Assembly: GCA_004524445.1 (NCBI GenBank)
Contig: SDNP01000039.1
Span: 1 to 21,941, forward strand
Reading direction: 5' to 3'
DNA: 21,941 nucleotides
Source: Candidatus Thorarchaeota archaeon
Lineage (GTDB): Archaea > Asgardarchaeota > Thorarchaeia > Thorarchaeales > Thorarchaeaceae
This document shows positions 3,319 to 20,721 of this stretch, in pieces (the stretch's first letter is position 1; each line of letters opens with the position of its first letter). Under the pieces are notes generated by a model. It had not been told where the DNA came from. It saw nothing but the letters and a program-made list of their open reading frames with translations, and did not search any database. The translations under genes and the position numbers were made by a program.

Positions 3319-4074
3319 TCATCGATGCAATTGAACCTCTGCGAAATCATGGATGGTTCCATCTATCTCGTGAAGGTGAAAAGAGGCGCTTCCTTCCTCT
3401 AACTCGATACGAGTATATGCTTGGGAATGTGCGCCTCTAATACGCCTCGAAAGAAGTGTACCCGTACAATACAAGGACATGTCATTAAGCTTCCAGTACC
3501 ACGGCACATGTCGGTGCCCATGTAGCACAAGAGAACAGCCCACCTCCCCTAGGACTGCCAGCAAATCTCCAGCGTCTTCGACCACATTATGCTCACGACC
3601 CGTATGTGGAATCGCTACCAAGTGATGATGCAAAGCAAATATTTTGACCTTGTCATCTTTCTTTGTGAAAAATTCCCGAATGCGGCCGTAATTTTCTCGT
3701 CCAACGTGCCCAGCATCGTTATCGGGCTCAGCACTATCGGCTGCAAACAGTGCAATGATATCATTGTCAAATGTCTTGAATCTGGAACCAAACAACTCTT
3801 CAAAGACTGATGAGCCGTAGTTTCTCTCATCATGGTTTCCAGGTATTATGATATTTGGAACATCAATCTTTAAGAATTCTCGAGCAAAATCCTCGTACTC
3901 TTCTCTGAGCCCATCACTTGTAAGATCGCCAGTCACCAAAAGGAGCGGATTGTCTGCCTCTTGACACTTCTTTTCAATTCCATCGAGAATACGTCTGAAG
4001 TCTTGAGTATGAACACCAGATTCTCCGAGATGAATGTCGCTCATATGAAATATGGTCATCTTGGATGATGACAT
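3319..4074 (-). CDS. Calcineurin-like metallophosphoesterase (Icc/CpdA-like)
   Basis: All five motifs present: SDIH, TGD, PGNHD, HHH and HGHRH. Its ATG abuts the stop of the 722-aa gene (TGA-ATG). Confidence 0.88.
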   Translation of the reverse strand: MSSSKMTIFHMSDIHLGESGVHTQDFRRILDGIEKKCQEADNPLLLVTGDLTSDGLREEYEDFAREFLKIDVPNIIIPGNHDERNYGSSVFEELFGSRFKTFDNDIIALFAADSAEPDNDAGHVGRENYGRIREFFTKKDDKVKIFALHHHLVAIPHTGREHNVVEDAGDLLAVLGEVGCSLVLHGHRHVPWYWKLNDMSLYCTGTLLSRRIRGAHSQAYTRIELEEGSASFHLHEIDGTIHDFAEVQLHR

Positions 4075-6243
4075 TCACCTGAAGCCTCCAGATACACAGG
4101 CACTATGACAAGCGCTGTGGCATGCACTGTGGCACACGCATGCGCTATGACAGGCACTGTGACACGCACTATGACAAGCGTCGTGTGAAACGCAGGCGGA
4201 GTGGCATGCATCATGAGACACACATCGACTAGTTCCATCGACTATGGGACTTAGAGGAGCTGATATCGTCTCTCCCACATTTTGGAGGATGGTTCCAATA
4301 GTGTTTGTTACATTAGACATTATTTCACCAGTAGTGGCCACTACATCGCCGACAGCTCGTCCAACTCCGGAAATGGCATTTCCAGTTGCGTCAGCTAGAT
4401 TAGAGAACCAGTCAGGAATCGGGGGTGGCGAGATTGCTCCACTTGGTTCAGTGAATACTCTGCCAACCTCATTATTATGGCGAGGATGCATATATAGCCA
4501 ATGCCACGCCCATCCACGATGATAGTATGTATCGAAATAGAAGTCAGACCGCCCATCTAGCGTTGGTTTTGATTCAAGTTCCTCCCACGCGTCATCCACC
4601 ATTCTATCATGCTCTTCCTTAGTAGCCTTGAAATCCGCATCCCATGATTTTTCTTGAACTCGGTCTGCTATCTCATCAATCATAGCATTAACCAAGTCAG
4701 GGTCAAGTTCGTTATCCGCGATTGCCTCAACGAACATCTTCTCGTAATATGTTAGGTCGTCAAATGCGATTCCAGTATCAGATACTCTAAGTGGATCAGA
4801 CGATATGACACGAACAGCCCCCTTCTTGACACAAGACATGAGAATCATTGTAACTAGTTTTTGTCGAGTCGTATTAACAAAAAAGGCGGACTCAACGGGA
4901 TCCAATTCAGCCACCGTCCCAGGTTCTCCAAACGTCTGTATTGTCATCTCGGGACTTTGATATACAGAGGTTGTTTCATCTTCCGCCCAGGTTGCACCAT
5001 AGCGTGTAGTCACACGTTTGTATGCGTAATAGACAACTCCAATGGCAACTGCTGCAAACACGCCAAGAATAATCATACTTGGTGGAATCAAAGGCGGGAT
5101 ATACTCTCGAACATATACATTGACTGAGAATGTTACCCAATCAGTTGCATTGAGATTTTCAGCCAATATTTGGAAACTGACAGTGAGTACCTGAGGAGTA
5201 TTCGCAGGGATGAAGGAGTAAGATAATGGATAATATTCCCCGCCATCTAGAGTTCCTACTAGAGTTGATGTTGAGCCAGAGGTCAAGGTCAGATTCTCAG
5301 GAACTGACACAGCTACTGTGACCCCATAGAGTTCAGAGTCTCCTATGTTGATCACATCAATGTCGATACTGAATTCTTGCTCAGCATCTGCGTTTACATA
5401 GGACTCCGCATTATACGCGAGCGCACCGGGCTGCTGGAATGGAGCGTAGAAGCTCCAATTTGTATAATGAAATACTCGGAAATGATCATAAGCTAGAAGA
5501 TCATTCTCTTCCATGCTAACGCTGAAGTTTCTCTGACTCGCCGAGGAACTCGATGGGTATGCTAACAGGTTAGTTTCTTCAAAACTACGTTGGTCGCCAT
5601 CCGATTCCTCAATTCCTTGCCGAAAGTCCTCCACGTAGCCTGCATAGTCAGCCCCAGCGGGCGTTATGCCACCGGACTCTTCTATCCAGCTCGAATTCAT
5701 CACGATGGGATATATCGCTCGAACATTCTCGTACCCAACTTGTTGTTCCCATTGAACAGGAGCCCAATTCAATACCCCAAATGTGCCAGTAACCTCTTCC
5801 TCCGTTGTTTCATCAATGAAGGTACCGGTGGTTTCTTCGATTATCCTGTTGGTGCTAAAATAGCCAAAGACAACAGTAACGGATTCTCCTTCTTGGGTTC
5901 GGGGCGTCCAATCAAGCCCATAACCATTTGATAAGACTGTGACAACCAGTAAGTATCTCTCACCTTGATATTCAACATATGCTCTATCCGGGTCATAGAT
6001 ACTAGACTCTTGAATACCCTCTAGATCGAACCCTCCAAGAGAACCGCTCAATACAGAGAAGGTCATCCAGTAAGTTACGTTTATTCGTCCATTAGGGAGA
6101 ACTACCACGTCGACTAGAATACTATCGATAGAAACTTGGGGGCTTTGTGATGGAACATGCGCGTCCACTGATGCAAAGGACACCATGACAACGATTACAA
6201 TTGATAGCATCAGTGTTTTAGTTTTGAGATTCATTTTACCCAA
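4075..6243 (-). CDS. Large type-I membrane protein, DUF2207-like, with an Ig-like domain and a Cys/His-rich C-terminal repeat tail; candidate radical SAM substrate
   Basis: Signal peptide ending SVDA; DUF2207-like start (IDSILVDVVVLPNGRINVTYWMTF); Ig/CARDB-like segment (IDVINIGDSELYGVTVAVSVPENL); TM helix IILGVFAAVAIGVVYYAY followed by KR; DUF2207-like cytoplasmic motifs (LDPVESAFF...VKKGAV...LTYYEKMFVEAI); CHSA tail ending SGGFR. AGGAG SD upstream. Confidence 0.75.
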   Translation of the reverse strand: MGKMNLKTKTLMLSIVIVVMVSFASVDAHVPSQSPQVSIDSILVDVVVLPNGRINVTYWMTFSVLSGSLGGFDLEGIQESSIYDPDRAYVEYQGERYLLVVTVLSNGYGLDWTPRTQEGESVTVVFGYFSTNRIIEETTGTFIDETTEEEVTGTFGVLNWAPVQWEQQVGYENVRAIYPIVMNSSWIEESGGITPAGADYAGYVEDFRQGIEESDGDQRSFEETNLLAYPSSSSASQRNFSVSMEENDLLAYDHFRVFHYTNWSFYAPFQQPGALAYNAESYVNADAEQEFSIDIDVINIGDSELYGVTVAVSVPENLTLTSGSTSTLVGTLDGGEYYPLSYSFIPANTPQVLTVSFQILAENLNATDWVTFSVNVYVREYIPPLIPPSMIILGVFAAVAIGVVYYAYKRVTTRYGATWAEDETTSVYQSPEMTIQTFGEPGTVAELDPVESAFFVNTTRQKLVTMILMSCVKKGAVRVISSDPLRVSDTGIAFDDLTYYEKMFVEAIADNELDPDLVNAMIDEIADRVQEKSWDADFKATKEEHDRMVDDAWEELESKPTLDGRSDFYFDTYYHRGWAWHWLYMHPRHNNEVGRVFTEPSGAISPPPIPDWFSNLADATGNAISGVGRAVGDVVATTGEIMSNVTNTIGTILQNVGETISAPLSPIVDGTSRCVSHDACHSACVSHDACHSACHSACHSACVCHSACHSACHSACVSGGFR
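4078..4224 (-). repeat. Protein-level tandem repeat (CHSA)x7 + (CVSHDA)x2
   Basis: Encodes CVSHDACHSACVSHDACHSACHSACHSACVCHSACHSACHSACVSGGFR: 49 aa, 11 Cys, 9 His. Confidence 0.95.
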
Positions 6244-6257
6244 ACATTCTCCTCTTC

Positions 6258-6578
6258 CTACTCAATACTTCTGTATTCATTTTCCTCATTTAGAAGGGTT
6301 TCAGCCGATTTGATGAGTCTAGTTACCTGATTCATAACTGTACTCCGGTCCTGCCAGTCTAGGTGCTCCAATAGCTCTCTGACAGGCCCCAGGTTATCAG
6401 CGCTATTCTGCAGAATAACTTTGACAGGGGCGTGCATCCTACTGTAGAGATTATGCTTCGCCAGATATTCCTTTGAAATGCTTTCAAACAATTCAGGAAC
6501 TGTCCTGTAAGTATCTGAATGCTTGACAGTCCTCTCACGAAGCTCATAGACAACATCAGGTATCTCGACTGCAGCCAT
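6258..6578 (-). CDS. Hypothetical protein with a ribbon-helix-helix-like N-terminus
   Basis: AVEIPDVVYELRERTVKHSDTYRTVPELFESISKEYL fits the beta-alpha-alpha pattern of CopG/MetJ-like proteins. GGAG upstream; 14-nt gap to the next gene. Confidence 0.55.
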   Translation of the reverse strand: MAAVEIPDVVYELRERTVKHSDTYRTVPELFESISKEYLAKHNLYSRMHAPVKVILQNSADNLGPVRELLEHLDWQDRSTVMNQVTRLIKSAETLLNEENEYRSIE

Positions 6579-6596: not shown

Positions 6597-6992
6597 TCAC
6601 TTCTCTCTTCGAACACGCATTACTTCTGCTTGAGCGAACGTCAAGCTCGAAAGATCTGCTTTTGCTTCAGCCCAATCGACCAAGTCCGGAAATTCCTGAA
6701 TGATACCACTCCAAACTATATGATAGACCCTCTTGAGGATGACAGTAGCATCAGTTTCCTTTCCCAAGTATTCGAAGAAGACCTTGATTTCAGCTGGCTT
6801 CTGTTGTGACATTTCTTCAGGTACATCAGTTCCGAAGCCTGAGAACGCAACCTGCAACTCCTTCAGAACATCTGATCGCTCTCTGACTCCAGCAGCTATT
6901 ACTGGCAAGTCCATATCGAAAGCACTGAAGTTCATTATCAGTTTCTTATTCTTGATTGTGCCGTATGGCAGTTTAGTTTCATTGGCGCTCAT
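6597..6992 (-). CDS. Hypothetical protein, first gene of the leftward operon
   Basis: 131-aa ORF with ATG preceded by GGTGGAG; 18-nt gap to the next gene; no recognisable family. Confidence 0.7.
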   Translation of the reverse strand: MSANETKLPYGTIKNKKLIMNFSAFDMDLPVIAAGVRERSDVLKELQVAFSGFGTDVPEEMSQQKPAEIKVFFEYLGKETDATVILKRVYHIVWSGIIQEFPDLVDWAEAKADLSSLTFAQAEVMRVRREK

Positions 6993-7142: not shown

Positions 7143-8576
7143 ATGACCGGATCGAACAACATTGGTGGATATGATTACAATCTGAAGGAACTCAGATGGG
7201 TCCCTAAGTTCATTGAAGAGGTGAAAGACTACTTCTTTGTAAGACCAGAAGACAAGCTTCTCATTTTACGGCCAAATAAAGTAATGCACCTCAACGAGAC
7301 AGCTCTAACGATGCTGAAGTTGCTGTTGGAAGGAAATGAACCAGTCAATGTTGTAGACCATTTTACTGAGAAGTATAATATTACTCAACAGCAGGTTCTG
7401 AATGATCTTGCTGACTTCGTTGATGACCTCATGAATATGACAAATGGAAATCAGAACGTCTACTCGTATAACACAGCCAAGATTGTTCCGTTCGGAGAGG
7501 GCGATATTGATTATCCGGTATTAAGTGAGATTGCGCTGACATATCGATGCAACAACAAATGTGAATTCTGCTACGCCTATTCGCCTTATAGAGAGAGCGA
7601 CGAGATGACTACCGATGAGGTGAAGAAAGTCATCGATATTATAGCCGATGATGCAAAGGCACCCAGTCTATCATTCACAGGGGGTGAACCGACGCTCCGT
7701 GATGACCTCTTTGAGCTGATCACCTACGGGAGAAAGAAAGGTCTTCGGATGAATCTCATTACGAATGGTAGAAGATGTGCAGACCCAGAATTCGTGGCTT
7801 CACTTGTGGACGCAGACTTGAACAGCGCACAGGTTTCTATCGAGGGCCCCGATGCTAAAACACATGATTCTATTGTCGGAGTTCTAGGCGCATTCGAGCA
7901 GACGGTTCAAGGGATCAAGAATCTTCGAAAAACCGATATTTACACCCACTGCAATACCACCATTTGCAAGCTTAACGTCGATCGACTAGAAGATCTTGTC
8001 GACTTTCATGCTGATGAACTCGAACTGACATACTTTAGTATGAACATGGTGATCTATACAGGGACTGCAGCGAAGAAAAGAGAGCAACTTCAAATAACAT
8101 TCTCAGAGATTGGTGATATTGTCCGTAAAGTGAAGAAGAGAGCAAATAAAAAGGGAGTTCAGTTTGTGTGGTACGCTCCGACACCAGTCTGTCTTTTCAA
8201 TCCTATTGCTCATGGGCTTGGCGCAAAACACTGTGCTGCATGTGACGGATTGATATCCGTTGATGCTGAGGGCGGTCTTTTACCCTGCTCAAGTTTCAGC
8301 GAACCAGTCGGCAATCTTCTTGAAGAGGGATTCGAAAAGGTCTGGAATAGCCGCTCAGCCAAATTCTGGAGAAACAAAGAATACGCACCCGAAGGGTGCA
8401 AAGAATGTGAATATTTCAAGTATTGTTACGGTGCCTGCCCACTCTATTTCGATGTAATGGGCTTTGAAGAAATCAAAGAGTTCTGGCCAGACAAAAACAA
8501 GGTCCTTTCTAAAATCGATAACATAAGGCTCACGCTTCGCCGTGCAATTAAAGGTGACCAGCACGGAATCACCTGA
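7143..8576 (+). CDS. PqqD/RRE-fused radical SAM/SPASM-domain protein (peptide/protein maturase type)
   Basis: N-terminal PqqD-like HLNETALTMLKLLLEG...VVDHFTEKYNITQQQVLNDLADFVDDL; radical SAM motif CNNKCEFC; FTGGEP; SPASM CAAC...LLPC...VGNL...CKECEYFKYCYGACP. Confidence 0.92.
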   Translation: MTGSNNIGGYDYNLKELRWVPKFIEEVKDYFFVRPEDKLLILRPNKVMHLNETALTMLKLLLEGNEPVNVVDHFTEKYNITQQQVLNDLADFVDDLMNMTNGNQNVYSYNTAKIVPFGEGDIDYPVLSEIALTYRCNNKCEFCYAYSPYRESDEMTTDEVKKVIDIIADDAKAPSLSFTGGEPTLRDDLFELITYGRKKGLRMNLITNGRRCADPEFVASLVDADLNSAQVSIEGPDAKTHDSIVGVLGAFEQTVQGIKNLRKTDIYTHCNTTICKLNVDRLEDLVDFHADELELTYFSMNMVIYTGTAAKKREQLQITFSEIGDIVRKVKKRANKKGVQFVWYAPTPVCLFNPIAHGLGAKHCAACDGLISVDAEGGLLPCSSFSEPVGNLLEEGFEKVWNSRSAKFWRNKEYAPEGCKECEYFKYCYGACPLYFDVMGFEEIKEFWPDKNKVLSKIDNIRLTLRRAIKGDQHGIT

Positions 8577-8627
8577 TTTCTGACGAAGACACAGGTTTCT
8601 AATAGTAGAACTGACTTCTTCATTGGT

Positions 8628-9779
8628 ATGAATCTTGAAGATGTTTTTACGCCAGCTCTACTTGTGGACTACCAGCGCCTGGAAGATAATATCAGGAAAA
8701 TGGCGAAGAAAGCTGAGAAGAACTCAGTATCACTTCGCCCACATATCAAGACACACAAATGCATCGAAATAGGTGAGATGCAGCTAAGAGCAGGAGCTCA
8801 GGGGATCACCGTCTCTACAGTTGAGGAAGCTCGAGTTTTTGCGGAACATGGTTTTCAAGATATCACGCTTGCAGCTCCACTCTGTCACGATAAGATAAAT
8901 GCGATTCTTGCCTTGTCGGAAGACACCACTCTTCGGGTCTTAATTGATCATCCAAAGACGCTTGAGATTCTAGAAAAGAGTTGTAGGAATGCAGAAACAG
9001 AAATCCAGGTGCTTCTGAAGGTTGACTGCGGGTACCACCGGGCAGGAGTAGACCCGAAGAGCGAAGAAGCAATACGGTTAGCCAGAAGTATTGCAAATGC
9101 GAAGCACCTGCATTTCAATGGAATTCTTACTCATGCAGGTCATGCATATGGCACAGAAACGGTTTCGCAAATCGAAGAAATCGCCCAGCAAGAACAGAAG
9201 GTCATGGTTGATTTCGCATCGAAGCTGGAGCGATACAGCAAAGACTTATGCTGCGAAGTGGTCAGTATCGGTTCCACCCCCACTTGCACAGTCAGCCCTG
9301 AATTTATTGAGGGCATAACAGAAATTCGCCCTGGAAATTACGTTTTCTATGATTACACACAAGTAGCCTTGGGAGTGTGCGAAATCAATCAGGTGAGCCT
9401 CAGCATCCTGAGTAGCGTTACAAGTGTCTATGATGACCATCTGGTTCTTGACACAGGGGCAACAGCATTATCAAAAGACCTAGGCGCCTCGCATCTTACA
9501 GAGCGTGTTTCATTCGGTGAGGTATTCGGTGATTACAGCAAGGGAACGTTGAATACAGATTTGAGAATTGCTTCGCTCTCTCAAGAACATGGCAAGGTAA
9601 CCGGTAAGCCTGCCATAGTTTCCAATTTTGAACCAGGTGATAGAATGCGAATACTTCCAAATCACTCCTGTCTCACTGCAAATTTGGGAAATAGATTATC
9701 TGTGGTTGAAGATGATACAGTCAAGGATATTTGGAAGATATGGAGAGGCAGATTAGAGCCCAAGCCGATTAGTGATTAG
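8628..9779 (+). CDS. PLP-dependent fold-type III enzyme, D-serine dehydratase / D-threonine aldolase (DSD1-like) family
   Basis: TPALLVD, LRPHIKTHK (PLP lysine), GSTPT, EIRPGNYVFYD, SQEHG and PNHSC (metal ligands). Confidence 0.88.
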   Translation: MNLEDVFTPALLVDYQRLEDNIRKMAKKAEKNSVSLRPHIKTHKCIEIGEMQLRAGAQGITVSTVEEARVFAEHGFQDITLAAPLCHDKINAILALSEDTTLRVLIDHPKTLEILEKSCRNAETEIQVLLKVDCGYHRAGVDPKSEEAIRLARSIANAKHLHFNGILTHAGHAYGTETVSQIEEIAQQEQKVMVDFASKLERYSKDLCCEVVSIGSTPTCTVSPEFIEGITEIRPGNYVFYDYTQVALGVCEINQVSLSILSSVTSVYDDHLVLDTGATALSKDLGASHLTERVSFGEVFGDYSKGTLNTDLRIASLSQEHGKVTGKPAIVSNFEPGDRMRILPNHSCLTANLGNRLSVVEDDTVKDIWKIWRGRLEPKPISD

Positions 9780-10466
9780 ATGCCCACAATACGGACATTT
9801 TTCCTCTTCTCCAGGTAGAACGGGCTCTTCAAGCTTGCCGCCACAATTTGGACAGGAAGTTACTGCATTAGGGAGTTCTTCGACAGCCTCCTGAGTATAG
9901 ACTACTCCAGAGTTTTCATCAATGACTCCTCGGAATTTCCCTTCTCTTGAGAGGTCGCGAAGAGTTTCAATTATCTCCTCCTCGCGCGCGTCCGTTACCT
10001 CTTGCAGCTGTTTGAAGGTCATTCTCCGTTGGGCGAAAAGAAGATGCAGCAGACTATCCCGCAGCTCGACTGAACGCGGACTTACAATTTCATTCGTGGA
10101 GCGATTCAAATATACGACAGGAAGTCGTTTTCGGGCGAGGCGTTCAGCTGCATCTGAAACCACATCTTCAGTGGTCCCCAATTCGCGAGCAGCAGCGCTA
10201 ACACTCATTCTGCCTTCGTCTTGTATCAGGGGAATCAGATCGCCACTAATATCGCTTAATTTGGCCTGTCTAGAACCTCTCGAGATGAGCCATAACCCAA
10301 TAGCTAGTTCAGGGAGAGCCAAGATTGCCCAGGCAACTAGCCCTGAAGTCAGCAGGAGTCCGAAATCGTCACTAACTCCTATTGTGCTTGTGTACACGAC
10401 ATAGCTCATGGCAAGACTCACAAAAACCAACAGCGCACCAATCAGTTGTTGCAGGCGACCACTCAT
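9753..10466 (-). CDS. Membrane protein with 2 TM helices, tandem PCI-like winged helices and a C-terminal zinc ribbon
   Basis: Two hydrophobic helices; RMSVSAAARELG...VYLNRSTNEIV and RMTFKQLQEVT...LSREGKFRGVIDENSGVVY; CPNCG...CPYCG. Overlaps the convergent PLP enzyme gene by 27 nt. Confidence 0.75.
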   Translation of the reverse strand: MSGRLQQLIGALLVFVSLAMSYVVYTSTIGVSDDFGLLLTSGLVAWAILALPELAIGLWLISRGSRQAKLSDISGDLIPLIQDEGRMSVSAAARELGTTEDVVSDAAERLARKRLPVVYLNRSTNEIVSPRSVELRDSLLHLLFAQRRMTFKQLQEVTDAREEEIIETLRDLSREGKFRGVIDENSGVVYTQEAVEELPNAVTSCPNCGGKLEEPVLPGEEEKCPYCGHLITNRLGL

Positions 10467-10671
10467 CTACTGAAACCTCATTCATGATGAAATTAGTACC
10501 TGCAATTATAGGTTGCGCCTTTATTTTGAAGGAATCAGCATATCAGATTCTGAACGCCAAAAGAGTCTTATCAAAGGAAATGTAATACTAGGATATACAT
10601 GTGTGGGCTAGGACAGAATAACTTAATTAGTAAGGTTGTATCAAATCCAAATACAACCTAGAAGGGCGTAT

Positions 10672-11109
10672 ATGATAAAGGAAGTTGAGACGATGGTTAT
10701 AGACAGAGAGGGTGCAACCTCAGCAATTATTCTTCACTTCAAACCGGGTAAGGCCGTAGAGTTCCCTGCCGAATTTGTGGCAGACATTAAGGAAGAAGCG
10801 GCTCTGACAGTATTACACCACAAAGACAGAGTCATGAAAATCTTCCCCGTTGCCTCAGACGATATCTACCTTCTTAGGATAGAAATTAGCGACCTGTCGA
10901 GGAACTTTTTGAAACAACTGAACTTTGCATTTAACGATGCGAAACTCAGTGACATCATTTTCACGACCGGAGTTTGCTTGCGCGGCGAAAAGTGCTATTA
11001 TGAGTGCTATTTTGTGCCTGACCAGCTAGTTGTCACCTTGGAAGAGCTTGAGGATAGTCTCAAGAAGATCCCAGGCGTTACCAGAGTGGTCTTAAGAAAG
11101 GTAAAGTAG
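10672..11109 (+). CDS. Hypothetical protein, possible AbrB-like N-domain plus ACT-like C-domain
   Basis: The C-terminus LEELEDSLKKIPGVTRVVL is ACT-like. GKAVEFPAEF...MKIFPV is weakly AbrB-like. Start uncertain (10636, 10672 or 10693). Confidence 0.55.
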   Translation: MIKEVETMVIDREGATSAIILHFKPGKAVEFPAEFVADIKEEAALTVLHHKDRVMKIFPVASDDIYLLRIEISDLSRNFLKQLNFAFNDAKLSDIIFTTGVCLRGEKCYYECYFVPDQLVVTLEELEDSLKKIPGVTRVVLRKVK

Positions 11110-11337
11110 ACTGGCTGAATGCAGTTTCACATCAAATGGTGGAAGGAGCGGTTCATCCGTTTCTGGCCCATGTAATCATTTTGTATGTGCTACTTTGAGC
11201 TTGTCCATACTCATTTCGGACCCATATTTGCATTGAATAATGCATTTTTTGGCTTTAGAATTCATCATGAAAGCAAGCATCCAATGCAATCTTCGTTATG
11301 GGTGGTGACTGATAGGCTTGGCAGCATCACAATATTA

Positions 11338-11637
11338 CTAGCTGGAGCGATACAGATGCAATCTAAAGAGGCCATATAGGATTGTCACAGCAACTGCGCT
11401 TAGAATTATCAGCTGGATCATTAAAGTGTTGAATATGGTCCACTCGATGGGAACTTGATTGGGATTGTAGAATTGAGCCCACCCCTCGTGTGAAACGAGA
11501 AACCAAATAGCATGAATTGCCATGCCCCAACAGGTTATAAAACCAAGGTTGGCAATGGTTCTGCAGAATTGCCTAGATTTCTCTTTTTCATGTTCTTTCT
11601 TTCTCTCTTTCCAAATGTCATCCCTTTCTGTACTCAA
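11338..11637 (-). CDS. Small 2-TM membrane protein
   Basis: Charged N-terminus followed by two hydrophobic segments; GAGGG upstream of the TTG start. Confidence 0.6.
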   Translation of the reverse strand: MSTERDDIWKERKKEHEKEKSRQFCRTIANLGFITCWGMAIHAIWFLVSHEGWAQFYNPNQVPIEWTIFNTLMIQLIILSAVAVTILYGLFRLHLYRSS

Positions 11638-11756
11638 ATCCGTCCCTCAATAACTACCGCATCATGTGTGTATATTGGTTATGTGAAAATCATTCAAGGT
11701 GGGAGAATAGAGTAATCCTTGCAAATCTTTCATACCAGCGAGTGATTGGATGAAGT

Positions 11757-12041
11757 CTACCTCTGCAGCAGTATTGTGAGATTATCTTCAGTCACTGAGT
11801 CAGATCCATTATGCTTGACAAACTCTCGAACCTTTTCGTAATTAGGAACATAGAGGGGACGTCGCATGTCTTGAAGGTTTGGAATCTTTTTGCAGAGTTT
11901 ATACCTAAGCAACCGCTTCAGAGCATGGCTCACTGTTCTTGGAGGTATCTCAGCACTCTCCGTTATATCATTTGGAGACATCGGACCTGTGGATGCCAAA
12001 TGGCTCAGTACATCCACTGCGCTCTTAGTTAGTGCTTTCAC
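11757..12041 (-). CDS. Winged-HTH (MarR/TrmB-like) transcriptional regulator
   Basis: VLSHLASTGPMSPNDITESAEIPPRTVSHALKRL...PNLQDMRRPLY. The GTG start overlaps the RIO kinase stop (GTGA), with GGTGGTGA SD. Confidence 0.8.
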   Translation of the reverse strand: MKALTKSAVDVLSHLASTGPMSPNDITESAEIPPRTVSHALKRLLRYKLCKKIPNLQDMRRPLYVPNYEKVREFVKHNGSDSVTEDNLTILLQR

Positions 12042-12868
12042 AATAATTCACCACCTTGGGGTGCTAGTTCTTTGTAGTATTTCTGGTTCGCAGGTACATA
12101 CGAACTGAGGAAGACATCCAGAATCTCATCGATGTTTCTTCGGATTCCATACGATTTGAAATGAGCCAGAAGATTTCGTATATCCCTTCTGAGAAGTTTT
12201 TCTGCCTTCAGCATGTTACAGTGAACTCCTACATGGTAGCCTTGAGGCACATCTATTATCCATGGTTTGTCATCCCACCAGAGTATGTTGTATTCACTCA
12301 AGTCACCATGGACATAGTGAACATCTCGATACATTATCAAATAATCATCCAATATCTGATCGAGGACCAAATCAGGCTCTTCTAGGGTAACCTCTCTCAG
12401 CTGTGGGCCCGGAACTGTACCGTCGCCGATAAGCCTCATAGTGAGATAGTTACAGACTCTCCCTATTGGAGTGGGAACTCTCATTCCAGCTTGGAAACAC
12501 CTCATCAATAGGTCATATTCTGCAACTGCGAAGTTTTCCATCATATGAAGAGCTGAATATGTCCGTTTGCTGGATGCTTGCGTCCGAAATCCACTTGACT
12601 TAGAGAGGCTGTGCGAAGATTGCCATATCCGGTATGCTTTGAGGACAATCGGATGGTCTTTCCAGGCAGCTAGAAAAATGGATGCCTCCTTACCAGCGCT
12701 CATCTGGTATAATACATCCGTAGCAAGGCCCATTCCCATGGCATCTTGCTTCACAGTTTCAAACGTGATTTCCTCTAGTTCAGCACGACGTTTGCCGCCT
12801 TTTGCGCTCTTGACCTTTCGAGTTGCTGCACTGCTCTTCAAGGGATTGAATTTTTCTACGGGGTTCAA
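12038..12868 (-). CDS. RIO1-family atypical Ser/Thr kinase
   Basis: SAGKEASIF (P-loop), VLKAYR, VPTPI, VHGDLSEYNIL (catalytic loop), IIDVPQ and LRRDIRN. Confidence 0.9.
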   Translation of the reverse strand: MNPVEKFNPLKSSAATRKVKSAKGGKRRAELEEITFETVKQDAMGMGLATDVLYQMSAGKEASIFLAAWKDHPIVLKAYRIWQSSHSLSKSSGFRTQASSKRTYSALHMMENFAVAEYDLLMRCFQAGMRVPTPIGRVCNYLTMRLIGDGTVPGPQLREVTLEEPDLVLDQILDDYLIMYRDVHYVHGDLSEYNILWWDDKPWIIDVPQGYHVGVHCNMLKAEKLLRRDIRNLLAHFKSYGIRRNIDEILDVFLSSYVPANQKYYKELAPQGGELL

Positions 12869-12891
12869 AGCTGTTCTCTCTTTTGTTGAAT

Positions 12892-12991
12892 TTTTACACG
12901 CCTAATGTTCATTATCACAATACTCATCCAAAATCAGTTGTCAAGCACAGAAACCATTGCTTGATGCAATAGAGAATCCAGGCGTGTAAAA
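12892..12991. repeat. Nested inverted repeats upstream of the RIO kinase gene
   Basis: TTTTACACGCCT (12892-12903) pairs perfectly with AGGCGTGTAAAA (12980-12991). Inner TCAAGCA (12941-12947) pairs with TGCTTGA (12958-12964). Confidence 0.7.
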
Positions 12992-13029
12992 TGAAACCAG
13001 TCACAAAAAGCGGCGGAGTTTCCTAGCTC

Positions 13030-13098
13030 CTATGGCACATGTGCAGACACTATCTGATTTCGACCGACCTTCTTAGTTGATTTATTTACTATCATCAT
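13030..13098 (-). CDS. Putative 22-aa small ORF / leader peptide MMIVNKSTKKVGRNQIVSAHVP
   Basis: Perfect SD AAGGAGGTG (13114-13106) 7 nt before the ATG; TATA-like TTATAT at ~13164-13159. Too short to appear in the ORF track. Confidence 0.5.
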   Translation of the reverse strand: MMIVNKSTKKVGRNQIVSAHVP

Positions 13099-13191
13099 TT
13101 GTCTGCACCTCCTTGTATAATCTACAAAGCCATTAGAAATCCGTTCCTAAGAGACAGAATATAAGGAAATCGGTCAGCGCCAAAAGACTTG

Positions 13192-14619
13192 CTATGTGGC
13201 ATCAATGACCGCTTCATCATCAGCTTCCACAATCTTGGTAGGATGAGTTTCATCGACAAAGAACCATACGAGTAGTGCGCTGATTATGCCCAATACGGCG
13301 GCAATCCAAAATGGAATCACCACGCCCCCAATGGATAATGGACCCAGTTGAAGAGTAGTAAGTGAAAAGAATGCGAAGAGACCACCACCAACTAGCGGCC
13401 CAAGCGTTGCGCCCGCATTGAAGAAGGCTTGAATCGTTCCAAATAGTTTCCCGCGAAGATGCCAAGGAACTATATCAGCTTGAAGCGCTCTCATGGCGGG
13501 TTGAGATACAGCCATCCCAGCGCTTTGAGCGACCCAAACTCCCGAAGTTTGTGGAATTGTGGAAGTCAGAGGGAGTACACCCAGGCTCAGCCTAGCTCCA
13601 ATCGCGCCGCTGACAGCCAGTCCCTTTCGTCCATGTCGGTCTGCATACCTGCCTGAAGGTATTGAGAAGAACATTCCGATGGCTCCAGCCCCGGAAATAA
13701 TCAAGCCTAACAGACCTATGTCAGTAGTGATTCTGCTCATCAAATATAACTGAAAAAGAGGCTGTCCTAATCCCATTGCGATTCCATCGGTCGCAGCCAT
13801 AATGTATAACACATTCACGAGGCGTCTAGTCTTCGGATTCATCTCGTCTTCTGTTTCTTCTATGGGCTCAGCAGGAATTTGAACCAACGCGGGACCATTA
13901 TCAATTACAACTTCGACTCCTGATTCGTCATTTTTTGCGGGTGCAGTTTCATCCAGTATGATAAAAGTAAGAAAAACCGAGGGCAATACAATGGCAGCAG
14001 CAATGTAATATGGTACTCGGAAAACGTGGGGCACTGGTAGGAGCAATACATCTCTACTGAAGTTGTAGAGGAATCCTCCCAAACCGGGGCCTATAATATA
14101 TCCGGTACTGGAAACCATCATGTATAGACCAAGACCTTCTCCACGTGCCTTGCTGCCAACAATGTCCATCAAAGCAGCTTGTGCAACTGGCCAAACCATG
14201 GCTGATACTACACCTTGACCCGCACGAATCAAGAGAAGATGAATCCAGTTCTGGGCTGCACCAAAGGCAAACAGAAGGAGGACATAACCAACTAATCCAG
14301 TTAGAAGGAGTGGCTTTCTTCCGTACTCATCTGAGATGCCGCCCCAGAATCTGGCAAGCAGTGTTCGAGTTGCCATGAAAGCGGCCATCATGACTCCGAA
14401 AATCACCGAATATTGCGCTACAACTTCATTTGGAACGGTGTAGCCGGGTCCGGGAGGCTGTGTTAATCCACCTTCTAACGCGATCAAATAGAAGGATAGA
14501 GAAGGCCCCACCAGACCAAATCCAAGCATAACTAGCATTGCATTGAGAGCAAGGACCATTACCTTGGGATTTCTGTACAATTTTGCTTTTTTAGGCGCAG
14601 CAGACTCAGAGGGCATCAC
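13192..14619 (-). CDS. MFS transporter (DHA1/TetA-like)
   Basis: About 12 TM helices; motif A twice (GGISDEYGRK, GRYADRHGRK); LIRAGQG; motif C-like GYIIGPGLGG. Confidence 0.9.
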   Translation of the reverse strand: MMPSESAAPKKAKLYRNPKVMVLALNAMLVMLGFGLVGPSLSFYLIALEGGLTQPPGPGYTVPNEVVAQYSVIFGVMMAAFMATRTLLARFWGGISDEYGRKPLLLTGLVGYVLLLFAFGAAQNWIHLLLIRAGQGVVSAMVWPVAQAALMDIVGSKARGEGLGLYMMVSSTGYIIGPGLGGFLYNFSRDVLLLPVPHVFRVPYYIAAAIVLPSVFLTFIILDETAPAKNDESGVEVVIDNGPALVQIPAEPIEETEDEMNPKTRRLVNVLYIMAATDGIAMGLGQPLFQLYLMSRITTDIGLLGLIISGAGAIGMFFSIPSGRYADRHGRKGLAVSGAIGARLSLGVLPLTSTIPQTSGVWVAQSAGMAVSQPAMRALQADIVPWHLRGKLFGTIQAFFNAGATLGPLVGGGLFAFFSLTTLQLGPLSIGGVVIPFWIAAVLGIISALLVWFFVDETHPTKIVEADDEAVIDAT

Positions 14620-14794
14620 GTGTTCTCGGTACCGAGAAACGATATCTGTCTAATATACATCCTTGTTTTGACATACATAGGCAAGCATTTATCACTCCAG
14701 AATTTTGTTTTTTCCCGTTTTGTTAGCAAAAGATGCGACACTTCAATATGAATGCGAATAGCCAAAGACAGAGGAACTACAATTGCCCAATCCC

Positions 14795-16489
14795 ATGAAT
14801 CCACTAATAGTTCAGTCCGACAAATCAGTATTACTTGAAGTCGATAATCCGAAGTACGAGGATGCGAGAGATTCTCTTGCCAGATTCGCAGAGTTAGTGA
14901 AGTCTCCTGAGTACGTTCATACCTATAGAATAACACCACTATCATTATGGAATGCTGCTGCAATGGGCATGTCAGCAAGAGAAGTTGTTGACGCACTTCA
15001 GGAGTTTGCCAAATATCCTATTCCGAGTAATATCTCGAAAGATGTAATCGAGTACATGGGAAGGTACGGTCAGCTTACTCTTGAGAAAATCGGCGAAGAT
15101 ATGGTCCTAGTGGCCGCTGACGAAGAACTGGCAATTGAGATTTGGCAGAGTAAGGGTGTCAGAGCGCACATTATTGAACCAGTTGATAGAAAGACATTCT
15201 TAGTTGATCCTGCAAAGAGAGGTTTCTTGAAACAAGCACTGATTGAGATAGGTCACCCAGTTGAGGACCTCGCAGGCTATGTTGAGGGCGAACCACTACA
15301 TTTCGATTTGCGAGAAGAAACACTTAGTGGGAATGAGTTTGGTCTTCGAGATTATCAACAGGACGCAGTTGACACTTTCTATGCTGGAGGAGGAGTCAAG
15401 GGTGGCTCCGGTGTAGTAGTGTTGCCTTGTGGTGCTGGAAAAACAATGGTCGGGATTGGTGCTATGCATAAATTGCAAACATCAACCATTATTCTCTGCC
15501 CAAACACAGTCGCGGTCCGACAATGGATTGCTGAATTATTAGATAAGACAACATTGACAGAAGACGAGATAGGAGAGTATACGGGCGACCGGAAAGAGAT
15601 TCGTCCGGTTACTGTTGCTACCTATCAGATACTGACCTTTCGAAAATCCAGAGAGCATGATTTTGAGCACTTTGAAATCTTCAATGCTAGGCCCTGGGGC
15701 TTGACAATATATGACGAGGTGCATCTCTTGCCAGCCCCTGTCTTCCGTGTCACAGCGAATCTGCAGGCCACACGCCGACTCGGACTGACGGCAACTTTAG
15801 TTCGAGAGGATGAGAGAGAGGAGGAGGTATTCAGCCTTATTGGTCCCAAACGGTTTGATATGCCTTGGAAGATGCTTGAGAATAAGGGATGGATAGCAAC
15901 CGCAGTATGCTATGAGATTCGTATTGAATTGCCAGAAAAGATGAGAAGAAAATATGCGGTTACAGAAGACCGAAGGAAATATCGGATTGCCGCTGAAAAT
16001 CCCAAGAAAATTGGAATTATCAAGCAAATAGTCAATTATCATGAGGGAGATAATATTCTCGTTATCGGGATGTATATTCGTCAGCTAAAAGCGATTGCAG
16101 AGGAACTGGACGTACCACTAATTACAGGAAAGACGAGTAATGAGGATAGGCAAAAGCTCTACCGTGCATTTGGCGAAGGTCGAGAAAAAGTACTCGTTGT
16201 TTCAAAGGTGGCAAACTTCGCCATCGACTTGCCGGATGCCAACGTCGCAATACAAGTTTCTGGAACTTTTGGTTCCAGACAGGAAGAGGCGCAGCGTTTA
16301 GGTCGCCTTTTGAGACCCAAATCGGATGGCAGCTATGCGCGATTCTATTCTATTGTAACCAAAGACACGCGGGACATGGAATTTGCAGCAAAGAGACAGC
16401 TTTTCCTAACTGAGCAGGGATACCAGTATGTGATTGCGTCAGAAGATGAATACATTTGGGAAAAACCGCCTGAGCTGTTCTTTCAATAG
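14795..16489 (+). CDS. xpb: XPB/Ssl2/ERCC3-family SF2 DNA helicase with N-terminal Helicase_C_3-type domain
   Basis: PLIVQSDKSVLLEV...FAELVKSPEYVHTYRITPLSLWNA; LRDYQ; LPCGAGKT; DEVH; LGLTATLVRED (RED motif); GSRQEEAQRLGRLLRPK; KRQLFLTEQGY. Confidence 0.92.
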   Translation: MNPLIVQSDKSVLLEVDNPKYEDARDSLARFAELVKSPEYVHTYRITPLSLWNAAAMGMSAREVVDALQEFAKYPIPSNISKDVIEYMGRYGQLTLEKIGEDMVLVAADEELAIEIWQSKGVRAHIIEPVDRKTFLVDPAKRGFLKQALIEIGHPVEDLAGYVEGEPLHFDLREETLSGNEFGLRDYQQDAVDTFYAGGGVKGGSGVVVLPCGAGKTMVGIGAMHKLQTSTIILCPNTVAVRQWIAELLDKTTLTEDEIGEYTGDRKEIRPVTVATYQILTFRKSREHDFEHFEIFNARPWGLTIYDEVHLLPAPVFRVTANLQATRRLGLTATLVREDEREEEVFSLIGPKRFDMPWKMLENKGWIATAVCYEIRIELPEKMRRKYAVTEDRRKYRIAAENPKKIGIIKQIVNYHEGDNILVIGMYIRQLKAIAEELDVPLITGKTSNEDRQKLYRAFGEGREKVLVVSKVANFAIDLPDANVAIQVSGTFGSRQEEAQRLGRLLRPKSDGSYARFYSIVTKDTRDMEFAAKRQLFLTEQGYQYVIASEDEYIWEKPPELFFQ

Positions 16490-16495
16490 ATTCCA

Positions 16496-17356
16496 CTATG
16501 ATGAGTTTCCAGCATCAAATCTAGTTATGCCCTTGGCAAGATCTCGAATCTCATCTAAACTCAATCTCTTCAATCCATAAGAACCAACCTCAAAAGTAAT
16601 CCACATTGGATTGTGAGGGGCTCCTTTTACTTTGGTGATGCGAAATTGCTTCAGTAGAAGTCCAGCATTCTGAACGACCGGTTCATGCCTTGTATCAATT
16701 ATAATGTCGCTAGAGTAGGTCAGCATGTCGTCATAGGTGGCAAATTGCTGTAGACCTGTATGATAGGTAGCCCAACAGGGAATAACTTGGTCCTTACAGA
16801 AAGTTGCTCGCCATGCCTTCAAAGCATTTACAGCCTTGTAAGGATGTGACTGAAAGAACATCTCCGTGATGCTGTCCATATAGATACCTCCGATTTCATT
16901 CTGTTCTTCATCACGCACCACTGTATGAAGAACATCGCTTATTTCATCTGGGTCAGAGGGGTTTCTAACTATCGTTGTGTGATCATATTTGGTCATCCGT
17001 CTGAGAATATGACTTGAGAAGCAATCTATCAGGTGAATTGTTTCATCATTGAGCAGTGTTTTGTAGTCCCAGCCTAGTGATGATAGATTCTGAAGGATTG
17101 CAATCGGTGTATCTTCTAGGCAAACGAATATGACCTTTTTTCCTGATTCCATCATTCGGATTGCCATCTCATTCAATAATGCTGATTTTCCCCCTCCACC
17201 TGGACCACGGATGACACCAAAAGCATTCTTCGGAAAGCCTTTGGGAACTTCAGAATCCAAAACCTCAATATTGCTTAGATAATGTTCTCGTCCCTTCCTG
17301 AGCATATCTTCCAAACTCAATTCAATGACCAACGTTATGACTCTGCCTAGCAACAA
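16496..17356 (-). CDS. KaiC/RAD55-like RecA-superfamily ATPase
   Basis: Walker A GPGGGGKS, CLED, IDCFS, Walker B YMDSIT and ITKVKGAPH. Exact start uncertain. Confidence 0.85.
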   Translation of the reverse strand: MLLGRVITLVIELSLEDMLRKGREHYLSNIEVLDSEVPKGFPKNAFGVIRGPGGGGKSALLNEMAIRMMESGKKVIFVCLEDTPIAILQNLSSLGWDYKTLLNDETIHLIDCFSSHILRRMTKYDHTTIVRNPSDPDEISDVLHTVVRDEEQNEIGGIYMDSITEMFFQSHPYKAVNALKAWRATFCKDQVIPCWATYHTGLQQFATYDDMLTYSSDIIIDTRHEPVVQNAGLLLKQFRITKVKGAPHNPMWITFEVGSYGLKRLSLDEIRDLAKGITRFDAGNSS

Positions 17357-17377
17357 ATCAATCTATTGGGGGTGGAT

Positions 17378-17848
17378 TTACGAGGCAAAACTAAATTTCC
17401 ATATATCTTGCAGTTGGATGGAATAGTAGCTGACAGATGATAGACACATGCCAAAAGAAAGCGCTATCGTGAGGGTTATGGATGGCATTAAAGCATTGGC
17501 CTGCAAAGAGTATTCCCCCAATACGTAAAAGGCAAACAAATATGTCGTTAGGCTCATCAAGAGAGCCGATAGCATAAGTAGAAACAGGACGGCGTATGCC
17601 ATCCGATGAAGTATCCAGCCGATTTCAGTTTCCTTGTCCACGTACATGATCACGAGAATCAACTGGCCAAAGAGGAACACTAAAGCAAAAACGACTGAAA
17701 TTGATGTGATAACCTGGAAGACAACATTCCCCATCGCACCTAATAAAGATGAAATGATCGATATCACCAAAATCAGAAAAGTCACTAAGGCATAATTCCG
17801 GTGTAGGTGTCCCTCATCAAGTAGTCGTTTTGCATCCAAATTCATCAA
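17378..17848 (-). CDS. Hypothetical 4-TM membrane protein
   Basis: Four hydrophobic segments; start overlaps the hydrolase stop codon. Confidence 0.7.
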   Translation of the reverse strand: MMNLDAKRLLDEGHLHRNYALVTFLILVISIISSLLGAMGNVVFQVITSISVVFALVFLFGQLILVIMYVDKETEIGWILHRMAYAVLFLLMLSALLMSLTTYLFAFYVLGEYSLQANALMPSITLTIALSFGMCLSSVSYYSIQLQDIWKFSFAS

Positions 17849-19158
17849 TCCTCAAGAAGTTCTAGAGCCATAAAGCGTTCTACATAGTAGGTTGAAATCT
17901 GACCTCCAAAACCATTGAAGTCATAGTCAAAACCATGTCCCGCCCAAGGGATAGTGACCAAGATGCACTTATCTCCAAGGCTCAATGCATATTCATAGAA
18001 ACTCAAACCTTGGGTTTCATAGTCAGCTAACCCGTCCTTGCTGCCATGAAGAATCATAATGGGTGGCACAACGCTGCTATTTGTTATTAGGTTCGCAGCG
18101 AAGAGCTTCGTATATTGATCCTCAATTGGCAAGTCACCTTTCACTAGCGCATCAAATAGTCCTGATGAACCCCTAGTTACATTCGTCACCGGATAGTACC
18201 AGATCCCTCCTTCTATTTTCATGCCTGTTGAAAAATTGCCTTCGTATAGAGGGTTCTTGTAACCCAAGGTAACCAATGAAGCCAAATGCCCCCCAGCGGA
18301 TCTGCCTGCCACGAAGACGTGATCGATATCTGCTTTGTATTTAGATCTGTTCAACTCCAAGACCTTAGTGAATTCACCCACATTCTCGATTTGGGCTTCC
18401 ATCGTGTAACTTCTGTTATAATTGGGGGAAATGTCAAAGCCTAGATTGGCAAATGAAGAGAGAGCTGTGCTTTGATCTTCTGGCAGTGTGTCGGGGTCAA
18501 AAAGACCATACTGGATGTCGAAAATGGCATACCCTTTGGACGCAAAATAATGATTGAACAAAGGAATATTCGAGAAGCCCTTGTTTCCAATTACCCAAGC
18601 TCCACCATGAATTGTTATTATAACCGGGAAAGGCCCTTCGCCAACAGGGCAGTACCAGTCAAAATACAGCGTGTCATCACCATTATCCAAGTATGGAATA
18701 TCATACTGAACTGAATATGTTGTTCCGTCAATGGAGAGCCCATAGAGGTCATCATAAAGAGAATATGGAACCTGTTTCATACCCGTTGTGTCTAGGTTGT
18801 CATAGAGTTCCCCATATACCTCCTGCATCTGTGACTCTGCATCAGATATCCCCAGTGGGATTGCTGCGTAGGGAAGAATCATCCCAATGAAGATAAATGT
18901 GCAAACAATGGATACGAGAAAAATCTCCCTTTTCTTGCTCAAAAACGAGAAGCGAATAATAATAAAGCCGCATCCAACAACCAGGATGAAAAGCATTGGT
19001 GCGATGCTCGGGTAGAACATGGCAATAAGCCATCCAAGGGTGGAGGACTCCAAGAAAAGATAGAGTATCGTAACGACACTAAGAATACCTAACCACAGAT
19101 AGCATAAGAAAAGGATCATGAATCTTAGCACCCTTTTTCCGTCTGCGATAATCTCCAT
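17845..19158 (-). CDS. Membrane-anchored alpha/beta hydrolase (HSL-like esterase/lipase)
   Basis: Three N-terminal TM helices; HGGAW oxyanion motif; GRSAGG nucleophile; HGSKD (Asp); AGHGFD (His). GGGGGAG SD upstream. Confidence 0.9.
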   Translation of the reverse strand: MEIIADGKRVLRFMILFLCYLWLGILSVVTILYLFLESSTLGWLIAMFYPSIAPMLFILVVGCGFIIIRFSFLSKKREIFLVSIVCTFIFIGMILPYAAIPLGISDAESQMQEVYGELYDNLDTTGMKQVPYSLYDDLYGLSIDGTTYSVQYDIPYLDNGDDTLYFDWYCPVGEGPFPVIITIHGGAWVIGNKGFSNIPLFNHYFASKGYAIFDIQYGLFDPDTLPEDQSTALSSFANLGFDISPNYNRSYTMEAQIENVGEFTKVLELNRSKYKADIDHVFVAGRSAGGHLASLVTLGYKNPLYEGNFSTGMKIEGGIWYYPVTNVTRGSSGLFDALVKGDLPIEDQYTKLFAANLITNSSVVPPIMILHGSKDGLADYETQGLSFYEYALSLGDKCILVTIPWAGHGFDYDFNGFGGQISTYYVERFMALELLED

Positions 19159-19459
19159 TTTGCTTCAATCTCCCCCTATGGACTCGCAGTGTTATAATAC
19201 TCACTAATTGAATCTCAGAGAAATAGGCAAGCAAAGAATGAGGTTTTGTTTCCAAAATTAGCCATTTTGTACTTCGCTCATATCTTAGGGCATTTCAGAA
19301 AGCCCTGAAGGTTCAGACTGTGATTTAGTTCGCTACAAAATACGACTTTTGTAATGAGAGTTCAGGTGAGCCATCGGAATCAAGCGCAGACACAATTGCT
19401 TTATATTATATAATAATAGCAACAAATGATACCTATCTTGATATAGGAGCGTTCAAAGA

Positions 19460-19705
19460 TTGAATGAGCTAAATAGACGGGAGGACAGCTCTAGCACCAG
19501 TTCAACACTACTCAAAATAAGGCAAGAAGCATTGGGAAAGGCCTTCAATGAGATTGGTAAGAGGAGATTTGAACTCGATGAGAAGTTGGACAATGGATGG
19601 ATTTCAAAAGAGGACTATCAGAAAGACCTCTTGAAACTGATTCTTGAAAGCCGAGAAATCCGCGATAAACAGCAGGAAATCAATGAGAAATTGGGGCTTG
19701 GATAG
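19460..19705 (+). CDS. Small helical/coiled-coil hypothetical protein
   Basis: 81 aa; AGGAG upstream of the TTG start; AT-rich TATA-like region at ~19400. Confidence 0.6.
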   Translation: MNELNRREDSSSTSSTLLKIRQEALGKAFNEIGKRRFELDEKLDNGWISKEDYQKDLLKLILESREIRDKQQEINEKLGLG

Positions 19706-19714
19706 TAGATACTT

Positions 19715-20692: not shown

Positions 20693-20721
20693 AAGAGGAG
20701 TTTGCTTAAACTACTTAAAGG

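Follow-up and report, generated by a model that had tools for sequence, protein, structure and literature searches.

A tandem array of Cys-His-Ser-Ala (CHSA) units, encoded on contig SDNP01000039.1 of Candidatus Thorarchaeota archaeon (assembly GCA_004524445.1), probably forms the C-terminal tail, on the cytoplasmic side, of a membrane protein with one transmembrane pass and serves there as the core substrate of an adjoining radical S-adenosylmethionine (SAM) enzyme. The enzyme is composed of a RiPP recognition element (RRE) domain of the PqqD type, where RiPP denotes a peptide synthesized ribosomally and modified post-translationally, a radical SAM domain, and a SPASM domain. The whole stretch of DNA analyzed, positions 1 to 21,941 of the contig, is referred to as the window, and the membrane protein that bears the repeat is referred to as the carrier. 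The features that make up the proposed pair are as follows.

4075–6243, minus strand: carrier gene, 722 amino acids (open reading frame; AlphaFold2 model; homologs in 61 of 85 other family genomes)

4078–4230, minus strand: invariant 51-residue C-terminal block S672–R722, which holds the Cys/His repeats (11 Cys and 9 His) and ends in GGFR

4912–5001, minus strand: juxtamembrane segment, residues 415–444, predicted to be disordered, conserved, with a Y-x-x-P-x-I...G motif

5002–5088, minus strand: transmembrane helix, residues 386–414 (AlphaFold2 helix 388–414)

7143–8576, plus strand: RRE(PqqD)-radical SAM-SPASM enzyme, 477 amino acids, the proposed tail maturase (Pfam), divergent from the carrier gene

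The repeat spans window positions 4078–4224 on the minus strand and corresponds to C674–R722, the final 49 residues of the carrier, with the sequence [CVSHDA-CHSA]x2-[CHSA]x2-C-V-[CHSA]x3-C-VSGGFR. Cysteines occur at i, i+4 spacing, and 11 of the 12 cysteines and 9 of the 17 histidines of the carrier are located in this tail. The seven CHSA units are encoded by seven distinct 12-mers, exactly those listed in an earlier note on this DNA; the serine of these units is specified by both codon families, as had been stated there, with TCC used once and AGT or AGC six times, and the two CVSHD units use TCT and TCA. Only weak period-12/24 arrays with 68–85% matches are detected in the tail DNA by Tandem Repeats Finder, and the tail is therefore no recent DNA repeat. 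When CHSACHSAC, equal to two and a quarter units, is written as a degenerate DNA pattern, it has no second match in the 2.79-Mb genome; the reversed pattern, run as a control, gives 0 matches. Given the codon listing, the concentration of Cys and His, the weakness of the repeat in DNA, and its uniqueness in the genome, the CHSA repeat is a real feature and not a chance occurrence. In the AlphaFold2 model, the tail has pLDDT values (the predicted score in the local distance difference test) of 30–40, such that no fold is predicted for the tail alone. Searches of Pfam and NCBIfam with the tail alone, at E values up to 10, returned no meaningful match, including none to metallothionein or Fe-S families; such families model short, biased sequences poorly, and the lack of a match therefore carries little weight. 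The peptide families of NCBIfam do not match the Cys-rich tail.

To collect homologs of the carrier, 400 genomes from the phylum were searched in six frames. In the window's own family, the Thorarchaeota, the carrier is present in 61 of the 85 other genomes, and the alignments nearly always reach residue 722. The 51-residue block S672–R722 was compared in 32 orthologs, in which 32 different DNA sequences encode six protein variants and 24 of the proteins are identical. The few substitutions observed are Ser/Thr, Ser/Ala, and Phe/Tyr/Val. Synonymous differences in the block are saturated, with a proportion of synonymous differences (pS) of about 0.92, and single Ser positions alternate between TCN and AGY codons from species to species. 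The mean column identity of the tail is 0.99, as compared with 0.61 for the remainder of the carrier. Serine, alanine, valine, and aspartate residues of the tail are as fixed as the cysteines and histidines, and there is no length change in the 32 orthologs, the CHSA repeat number being constant throughout the family. Every residue of the tail is thus under extreme purifying selection that acts at the level of protein and not of DNA. The earlier note had proposed such conservation, with purifying selection favored over slippage, and the comparison of 32 DNA sequences with six protein variants, the value of pS, and the Ser codon switches bear it out. The note had also asked whether the tail is missing from close orthologs or has unconstrained Cys and His residues in them, and whether the repeat number differs among them: the tail is kept, its Cys and His are invariant, and no variation in repeat number is seen within the family.

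Two orthologs that appeared to be tail-less were rejected as such. In P0001, an in-frame TAG is followed by an intact tail in the same frame. This TAG (L001:4371–4373, on the same contig as L046, genome G358) lies between the body and the tail and aligns to Gln654 of the carrier encoded in the window; a sequencing error could account for it, as could a nonsense mutation of recent origin or read-through, and gene callers split the gene there, which hides the tail. The contig that encodes P0002 ends in a Nextera transposase adapter (L002:2495–2544, CTGTCTCTTATACACATCT...). The final residues of P0002 are therefore artefactual and are uninformative with respect to the tail.

The genes for the carrier and the radical SAM enzyme are 900 bp apart in the window, and their proximity is maintained across the family. 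The enzyme gene adjoins the carrier gene in 28 of the 29 Thorarchaeota loci that were fetched and searched by tblastn, and the remaining locus stops at the carrier gene, at a contig edge. Among the 86 family genomes, 58 contain both genes, 19 contain neither (seven of these 19 are at least 91% complete), and nine are discordant. In all nine, the gene that was found is a partial match, and the one inspected, G369, shows a scaffold gap. This genome was rejected as an example of a carrier without an enzyme, the carrier gene being interrupted by a gap of 100 N. The nominally single-contig genome (L053, G369:C1) is in fact a scaffold with 100-N joins, one of which cuts the carrier and probably hides the enzyme gene. 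Within two genera, the presence and absence of carrier and enzyme shift together.

The pairing extends well beyond this family. An enzyme ortholog adjoins the carrier in seven other Asgard families, in several cases as overlapping operons, and also on two metagenome contigs. The tails of the other Asgard families have the form (CH[S/D/N/G/A]A)n-CVSGG-x or consist of (CA)n with an AGGGR end. A scan of species-representative genomes for the (CA)n subgroup yielded at least 366 loci, of which the best 80 were analyzed. All 80 belong to Chloroflexota/Anaerolineae, including the cultured genera Bellilinea, Levilinea, Ornatilinea, Leptolinea, and Anaerolinea. An enzyme ortholog is located downstream of the tail in 77 of these 80 loci, mostly at a distance of 30–180 bp, and the contigs of the other three end within 400 bp. 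In a library of 1.8 billion proteins, almost all full-length members of the carrier family end in a Cys tail, with the number of cysteines ranging from about 3 to 15 by lineage. Only the carrier and the enzyme are common to all cassettes. Among the tails, the only elements common to all types are Ala-Cys units and a terminal Gly-Gly; the (CA)n tails contain no histidine and retain the same enzyme partner. Neither Pfam nor NCBIfam contains a model that covers the carrier or the enzyme, the cultured Anaerolineae included. Because the enzyme gene is a fixed neighbor of the carrier gene and co-occurs with it across Thorarchaeota, other Asgard archaea, and Anaerolineae, the tail is most likely the substrate of the enzyme. 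That the repeat is a radical SAM substrate, a general idea put forward before the gene pair had been compared, is supported by the conservation of this pair across Asgard archaea and Anaerolineae.

The enzyme contains three Pfam domains, PqqD (residues 41–97), Radical_SAM (residues 132–288), and SPASM (residues 366–423). The CX3CX2C motif that is formed by C136, C140, and C143 is invariant, and the SPASM region carries a full set of cysteines (C364, C382, C419, C422, C428, and C432). The closest relatives of known structure are enzymes that cross-link peptides, with SkfB as the top match and PqqE, SuiB, and CteB among the others. No NCBIfam cut-off is passed by the enzyme; the best scores are to AhbD/NirJ, PqqE, mycofactocin-type, and other SPASM enzymes, all far below their cut-offs, and SCIFF maturase models are absent among its best 25 NCBIfam matches. 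A "1 TGA inside" match had suggested selenocysteine in the enzymes of G281 and G282; this candidate was discarded, the TGA being an ordinary stop codon that the profile match overran.

An alignment of 67 sequences gave an AlphaFold2 model of the carrier (mean pLDDT 81.7), in which its architecture was examined. A signal peptide at the N terminus precedes a β-sandwich ectodomain (residues about 31–385, predicted with confidence over 36–379) and the transmembrane helix. The transmembrane helix is immediately followed by Lys and Arg residues, as read from the sequence, and because these basic residues come after the helix, the C-terminal half of the carrier, including the tail, is predicted to be cytoplasmic. 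The juxtamembrane segment, for which pLDDT is below 50 for residues 415–436, has a column identity of 0.76, the highest in the carrier outside the tail, and P431 is invariant among 67 diverse members of the carrier family. This segment is a candidate docking site for the RRE domain of the enzyme. A confidently predicted cytoplasmic α/β domain (residues about 445–600), a Gly/Thr/Val-rich linker, and the tail complete the protein. Prediction of a complex of the enzyme, carrier residues 590–722, three [4Fe-4S] clusters, and SAM scored 0.00 and provided no answer; segment 415–444 was outside the construct.

Searches of Pfam with the carrier gave only a subthreshold match to DUF11 (18.2 bits, cut-off 24.6), and NCBIfam gave nothing. 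When the ectodomain (window 5089–6150, minus strand) is ranked by fold, Ost1/ribophorin I (RPN1) is at the top, with a Foldseek E value of 1.7e-10 and VIA Z scores of 13–15.8 over 178–186 residues. Unrelated generic β-sandwich proteins reach a Z score of about 12 against the same ectodomain, such that the margin for Ost1/RPN1 is small. The Pfam model Ribophorin_I (PF04597), searched against the ectodomain at E values up to 10, gives no match, and none was found in a genome search for which the controls were uninformative. A search for a sequence link between the carrier and solved structures found none, and the L044 carrier matches no Protein Data Bank chain, deposited Asgard OST1 domains included. 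The resemblance of the modeled ectodomain to Ost1/ribophorin I is thus a lead only. Similar to the carrier, both Ost1/ribophorin I and DUF2207 membrane proteins are laid out as a signal peptide, a β-sandwich ectodomain, one transmembrane helix, and a cytoplasmic domain, and (CA)n relatives of the carrier give faint matches to DUF2207_C. The carrier itself falls outside the Pfam definitions of DUF2207 and Ribophorin_I, and the likeness has no sequence-level support. We know of no DUF2207 protein or Ost1/ribophorin I with a Cys tail or a radical SAM partner.

In the sequence of events that would connect enzyme and tail, the PqqD-like domain would recognize the carrier, possibly through the juxtamembrane segment, which is conserved and predicted to be disordered. 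The chemistry of the 5′-deoxyadenosyl radical, together with the auxiliary Fe-S clusters, would then modify the regularly spaced cysteines, and the most likely product would be Cys-derived thioether cross-links to nearby residues, of the sactionine or ranthionine type. A floppy tail would thereby be converted into a fixed, cross-linked structure, which could bind metal through its histidines and remaining thiols. The absence of a predicted fold for the tail in a model that is confident for the rest of the carrier is in keeping with this proposal. Since Ala-Cys units and Gly-Gly are all that the tails share, cysteine is likely to be the target. Thioether cross-linking of the tail cysteines is the most likely chemistry given the resemblance of the enzyme to its family, the presence of SkfB and CteB among its relatives, and CrpC/CrpA as the one characterized case on a large protein.

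Several points weigh against this proposal. Modification of the tail by the enzyme is a prediction, and in two Asgard families (f14 and f23) an enzyme ortholog is present that is unlinked to the carrier gene. None of the curated maturase models recognizes the enzyme: it scores 92.2 bits against NF047865 (rSAM_PapB; cut-off 340) and 62.9 bits against TIGR04463, the CrpC family (rSAM_vs_C_rich; cut-off 525), and TIGR04115, the CXXX-repeat maturase (cut-off 350 bits), has no match at 7143–8576, its sole match in the genome being another gene at 21.7 bits. The (CA)n tails offer no Asp, Thr, or Glu acceptor, and a shared chemistry, if there is one, therefore cannot be a Cys-Asp link of the PapB type. 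The core is also frozen. Typical RiPP cores are variable, and the tail fits better with cofactor precursors than with the variable cores of antibiotic RiPPs. For this reason, a structural, redox, or metal-binding end product appears more likely than a released peptide.

If the tail were instead an unmodified Cys/His module that binds metal or Fe-S clusters, similar to a metallothionein or a store of Cu(I), Zn, or Ni, its link to the enzyme would have to be of another kind: metal or clusters for the enzyme might be provided or buffered by the tail, for example, or the enzyme's target might be a different protein or a different region of the carrier. We regard this as unlikely, even though the 49 residues contain 11 Cys and 9 His and the Cys are spaced i, i+4, the (CA)n relatives resemble the C-X-C strings of metallothioneins, and AlphaFold2 predicts no fold in a model that lacks ligands. 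The authors of the work on CrpA likewise suspect a role in metal binding for the modified protein (PMC13692751). Metal-binding strings, however, normally tolerate changes in length and at non-ligand positions, whereas Ser, Ala, Val, and Asp are fixed here. The (CA)n tails dispense with His and keep the same enzyme partner, no metallothionein or Fe-S family of Pfam or NCBIfam matches the tail, and the module would leave unexplained both the peptide-recognition domain of the enzyme and its fixed association with the carrier.

A second alternative, which we also consider improbable, retains the tail as substrate and changes the chemistry. The enzyme could form C–C or C–N cross-links that involve His, convert Cys to formylglycine or dehydroalanine, epimerize residues, or, in the cassettes that include a methyltransferase, take part in methylation, perhaps to build a protein-tethered cofactor. 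The best NCBIfam scores point in this direction, as they are to AhbD/NirJ, PqqE, and mycofactocin-type enzymes and not to thioether synthases, and PqqE and SuiB are among the closest solved relatives. The resemblance of the frozen core to cofactor precursors more than to antibiotics, the SAM methyltransferase of (CA)n cassettes, and the second radical SAM-like gene of Bellilinea are consistent with it as well. Cys and Ala, however, are the sole residues common to all tail types, the top solved match is the sactionine synthase SkfB, and the one characterized large-protein example, CrpA, forms thioethers. That the tail is a low-complexity product of slippage, or a string for lipidation or disulfide formation with no specific sequence requirement, is scarcely credible. 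A periodic sequence at a protein terminus would suit such an origin, but repeat identity is missing from the DNA and the length is constant in 32 orthologs despite saturated synonymous change; the predicted cytoplasmic location also weighs against disulfides. Both the Tandem Repeats Finder result and the conservation among orthologs contradict it, and this explanation was set aside.

The characterized system most similar to the carrier and enzyme is that of CrpA and CrpC. CrpC of Methanococcus voltae is an RRE-radical SAM-SPASM enzyme whose substrate, the large and Cys-rich protein CrpA, receives thioethers at motifs that include Cys-Ala-Gly and Cys-Ala-Val (PMC13692751, 2026). Both systems are archaeal, both place an RRE-radical SAM-SPASM gene beside the gene for a large Cys-rich protein, and in both the cysteines are in a repeated C-terminal region. 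The main differences are that CrpA is a 28.8-kDa (about 29-kDa) protein with 17-residue repeats, for which the word "membrane" does not occur in PMC13692751, whereas the carrier is a 722-residue membrane protein with an ectodomain and an invariant tail of four-residue period. In addition, the CrpA/CrpC system is from methanogens, whereas the system described here is distributed over Asgard archaea and the Anaerolineae. The CXXX-repeat target system (TIGR04114, TIGR04115, and TIGR04117), which has a computational definition only, also shares with it a tandem array of Cys at every fourth residue beside a radical SAM/SPASM gene. Known targets of the CXXX-repeat system are short peptide paralogs, and tails of membrane proteins are not known among them. 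TIGR04117 (cut-off 50 bits) finds nothing in the window tail and gives about 15 bits for the (CHxA)n relatives P0016 and P0021; TIGR04114 likewise gives no match above its cut-off, and one relative of the carrier has a weak precomputed match to PF27846. These comparisons suggest that the pair works like the CrpA/CrpC and CXXX-repeat systems and is a member of neither.

The ranthipeptide systems, including freyrasin (PapA/PapB) and SCIFF (CteA/CteB), resemble the present one in their Cys-rich cores and their RRE-radical SAM-SPASM cross-linking enzymes. In those systems, the substrate is a short leader-core peptide with a variable core, in contrast to the frozen core here, at the end of a 722-residue membrane protein. 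The earlier note had described the tail as containing known ranthipeptide motifs. CX3D is the motif that PapB cross-links (PMC9413430), and it is indeed found twice in the window tail, as CVSHD. The motif is nevertheless confined to the Thorarchaeota tail, the relatives having CHDA units or a pure (CA)n without Asp, and the enzyme reaches only 92 bits against a PapB cut-off of 340. The argument from this motif, which amounts here to a pattern match, is therefore weak, and as most related tails lack CX3D, it cannot be general. A further parallel to the proposal is the quinohemoprotein amine dehydrogenase system QhpC/QhpD, in which the Cys thioethers formed by a radical SAM/SPASM enzyme are intraprotein links of a functional subunit and not of a secreted peptide. 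QhpC differs in being a small enzyme subunit without a repeat tail, and the comparison was made by generic radical SAM scores only. A literature search returned no paper that describes this carrier-enzyme system; the tail-motif words CHSAC and CACACAGGG gave nothing relevant, and "Cxxx repeat" and "tSAM" gave nothing useful.

Short secreted peptides are a well-known target of cysteine cross-linking by radical SAM enzymes. To our knowledge, its occurrence on a large protein was shown only in 2026, for CrpA/CrpC. Here, an enzyme of the same kind is tied to the tail of a membrane protein shaped like a receptor, a pairing with a whole membrane protein that has been uncharacterized so far. Few sequences of the locus are as conserved as the tail, and the pair spans many Asgard lineages and hundreds of Anaerolineae. 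The inclusion of cultured strains makes the predicted protein modification directly testable, and the pair offers a function-linked handle on a large, unannotated family of membrane proteins. Should the modified tail bind metal or carry electrons, it would constitute a new type of protein-derived cofactor. A more specific version of this idea, which we put forward as a long shot, is that the processed Cys/His tail may be a protein-tethered, peptide-derived redox or metal cofactor, a cross-linked "wire" attached at the cytoplasmic side to a membrane protein with the Ost1-like shape of a receptor. In that case, the carrier would represent a new kind of transmembrane sensor, or a relay for electrons or metal in Asgard archaea and Anaerolineae, and not the precursor of a secreted product.

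Four further genes accompany the pair in the window.

3319–4074, minus strand: calcineurin-like metallophosphoesterase (Pfam Metallophos, 3.5e-15)

6258–6578, minus strand: 106-residue open reading frame, not constant in the cluster, directly upstream of the carrier gene

6597–6992, minus strand: conserved 131-residue protein without a family, between the enzyme and carrier genes throughout the Thorarchaeota family

8628–9779, plus strand: Ala_racemase_N/D-Ser-dehydratase-like pyridoxal 5′-phosphate (PLP) enzyme (Pfam), downstream of the radical SAM gene

The 131-residue protein is found by tblastn at every family locus with enough flanking sequence, at 65–92% identity. It has no match in Pfam or NCBIfam and is absent from the distant cassettes. 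In L054 (G313:C1:755000–769000), about 5.5 kb of other DNA separates the enzyme gene from the 131-residue protein gene in this genus, and the cluster can therefore be split and still be retained. The 106-residue open reading frame occurs at some family loci only, at 27–63% identity, and gives a subthreshold Pfam match to EzrA (16.5 bits, cut-off 39.6) and nothing in NCBIfam. The ATG of the phosphoesterase abuts the TGA of the carrier with a 0-nt gap; about half of the family loci have the phosphoesterase gene downstream of the carrier, and the distant cassettes lack it. The PLP enzyme is at the same position in L001, L047, and L054, and none was seen in the distant cassettes. Specific to Thorarchaeota are the PLP enzyme, the 131-residue protein, and the phosphoesterase.

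The (CA)n cassettes of Asgard archaea and Anaerolineae have accessory genes of their own. A conserved protein of about 120 residues, with two transmembrane helices and a CxxC...CxxC zinc ribbon, is encoded directly upstream of the carrier (L044:9418–9804, L061:3615–3989, L049:4149–4505, and L050:5607–5960); the Thorarchaeota 131-residue protein has no similarity to it. In some of the cassettes, a gene for a class I SAM methyltransferase comes next, and that of Bellilinea also contains a second PqqD/radical SAM-like gene (L061:7029–8294 and 8243–9028; L044:5354–6079), which hints at further tailoring steps. The remainder of the window, 9753–21941, appears from the list of open reading frames to contain typical archaeal housekeeping genes. 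These are predicted to include a RIO-type kinase (12038–12868), a major facilitator superfamily (MFS) transporter (13192–14619), an XPB-like helicase (14783–16489), a KaiC/RecA-like ATPase (16496–17356), and a clamp-loader small subunit (21027–21941).

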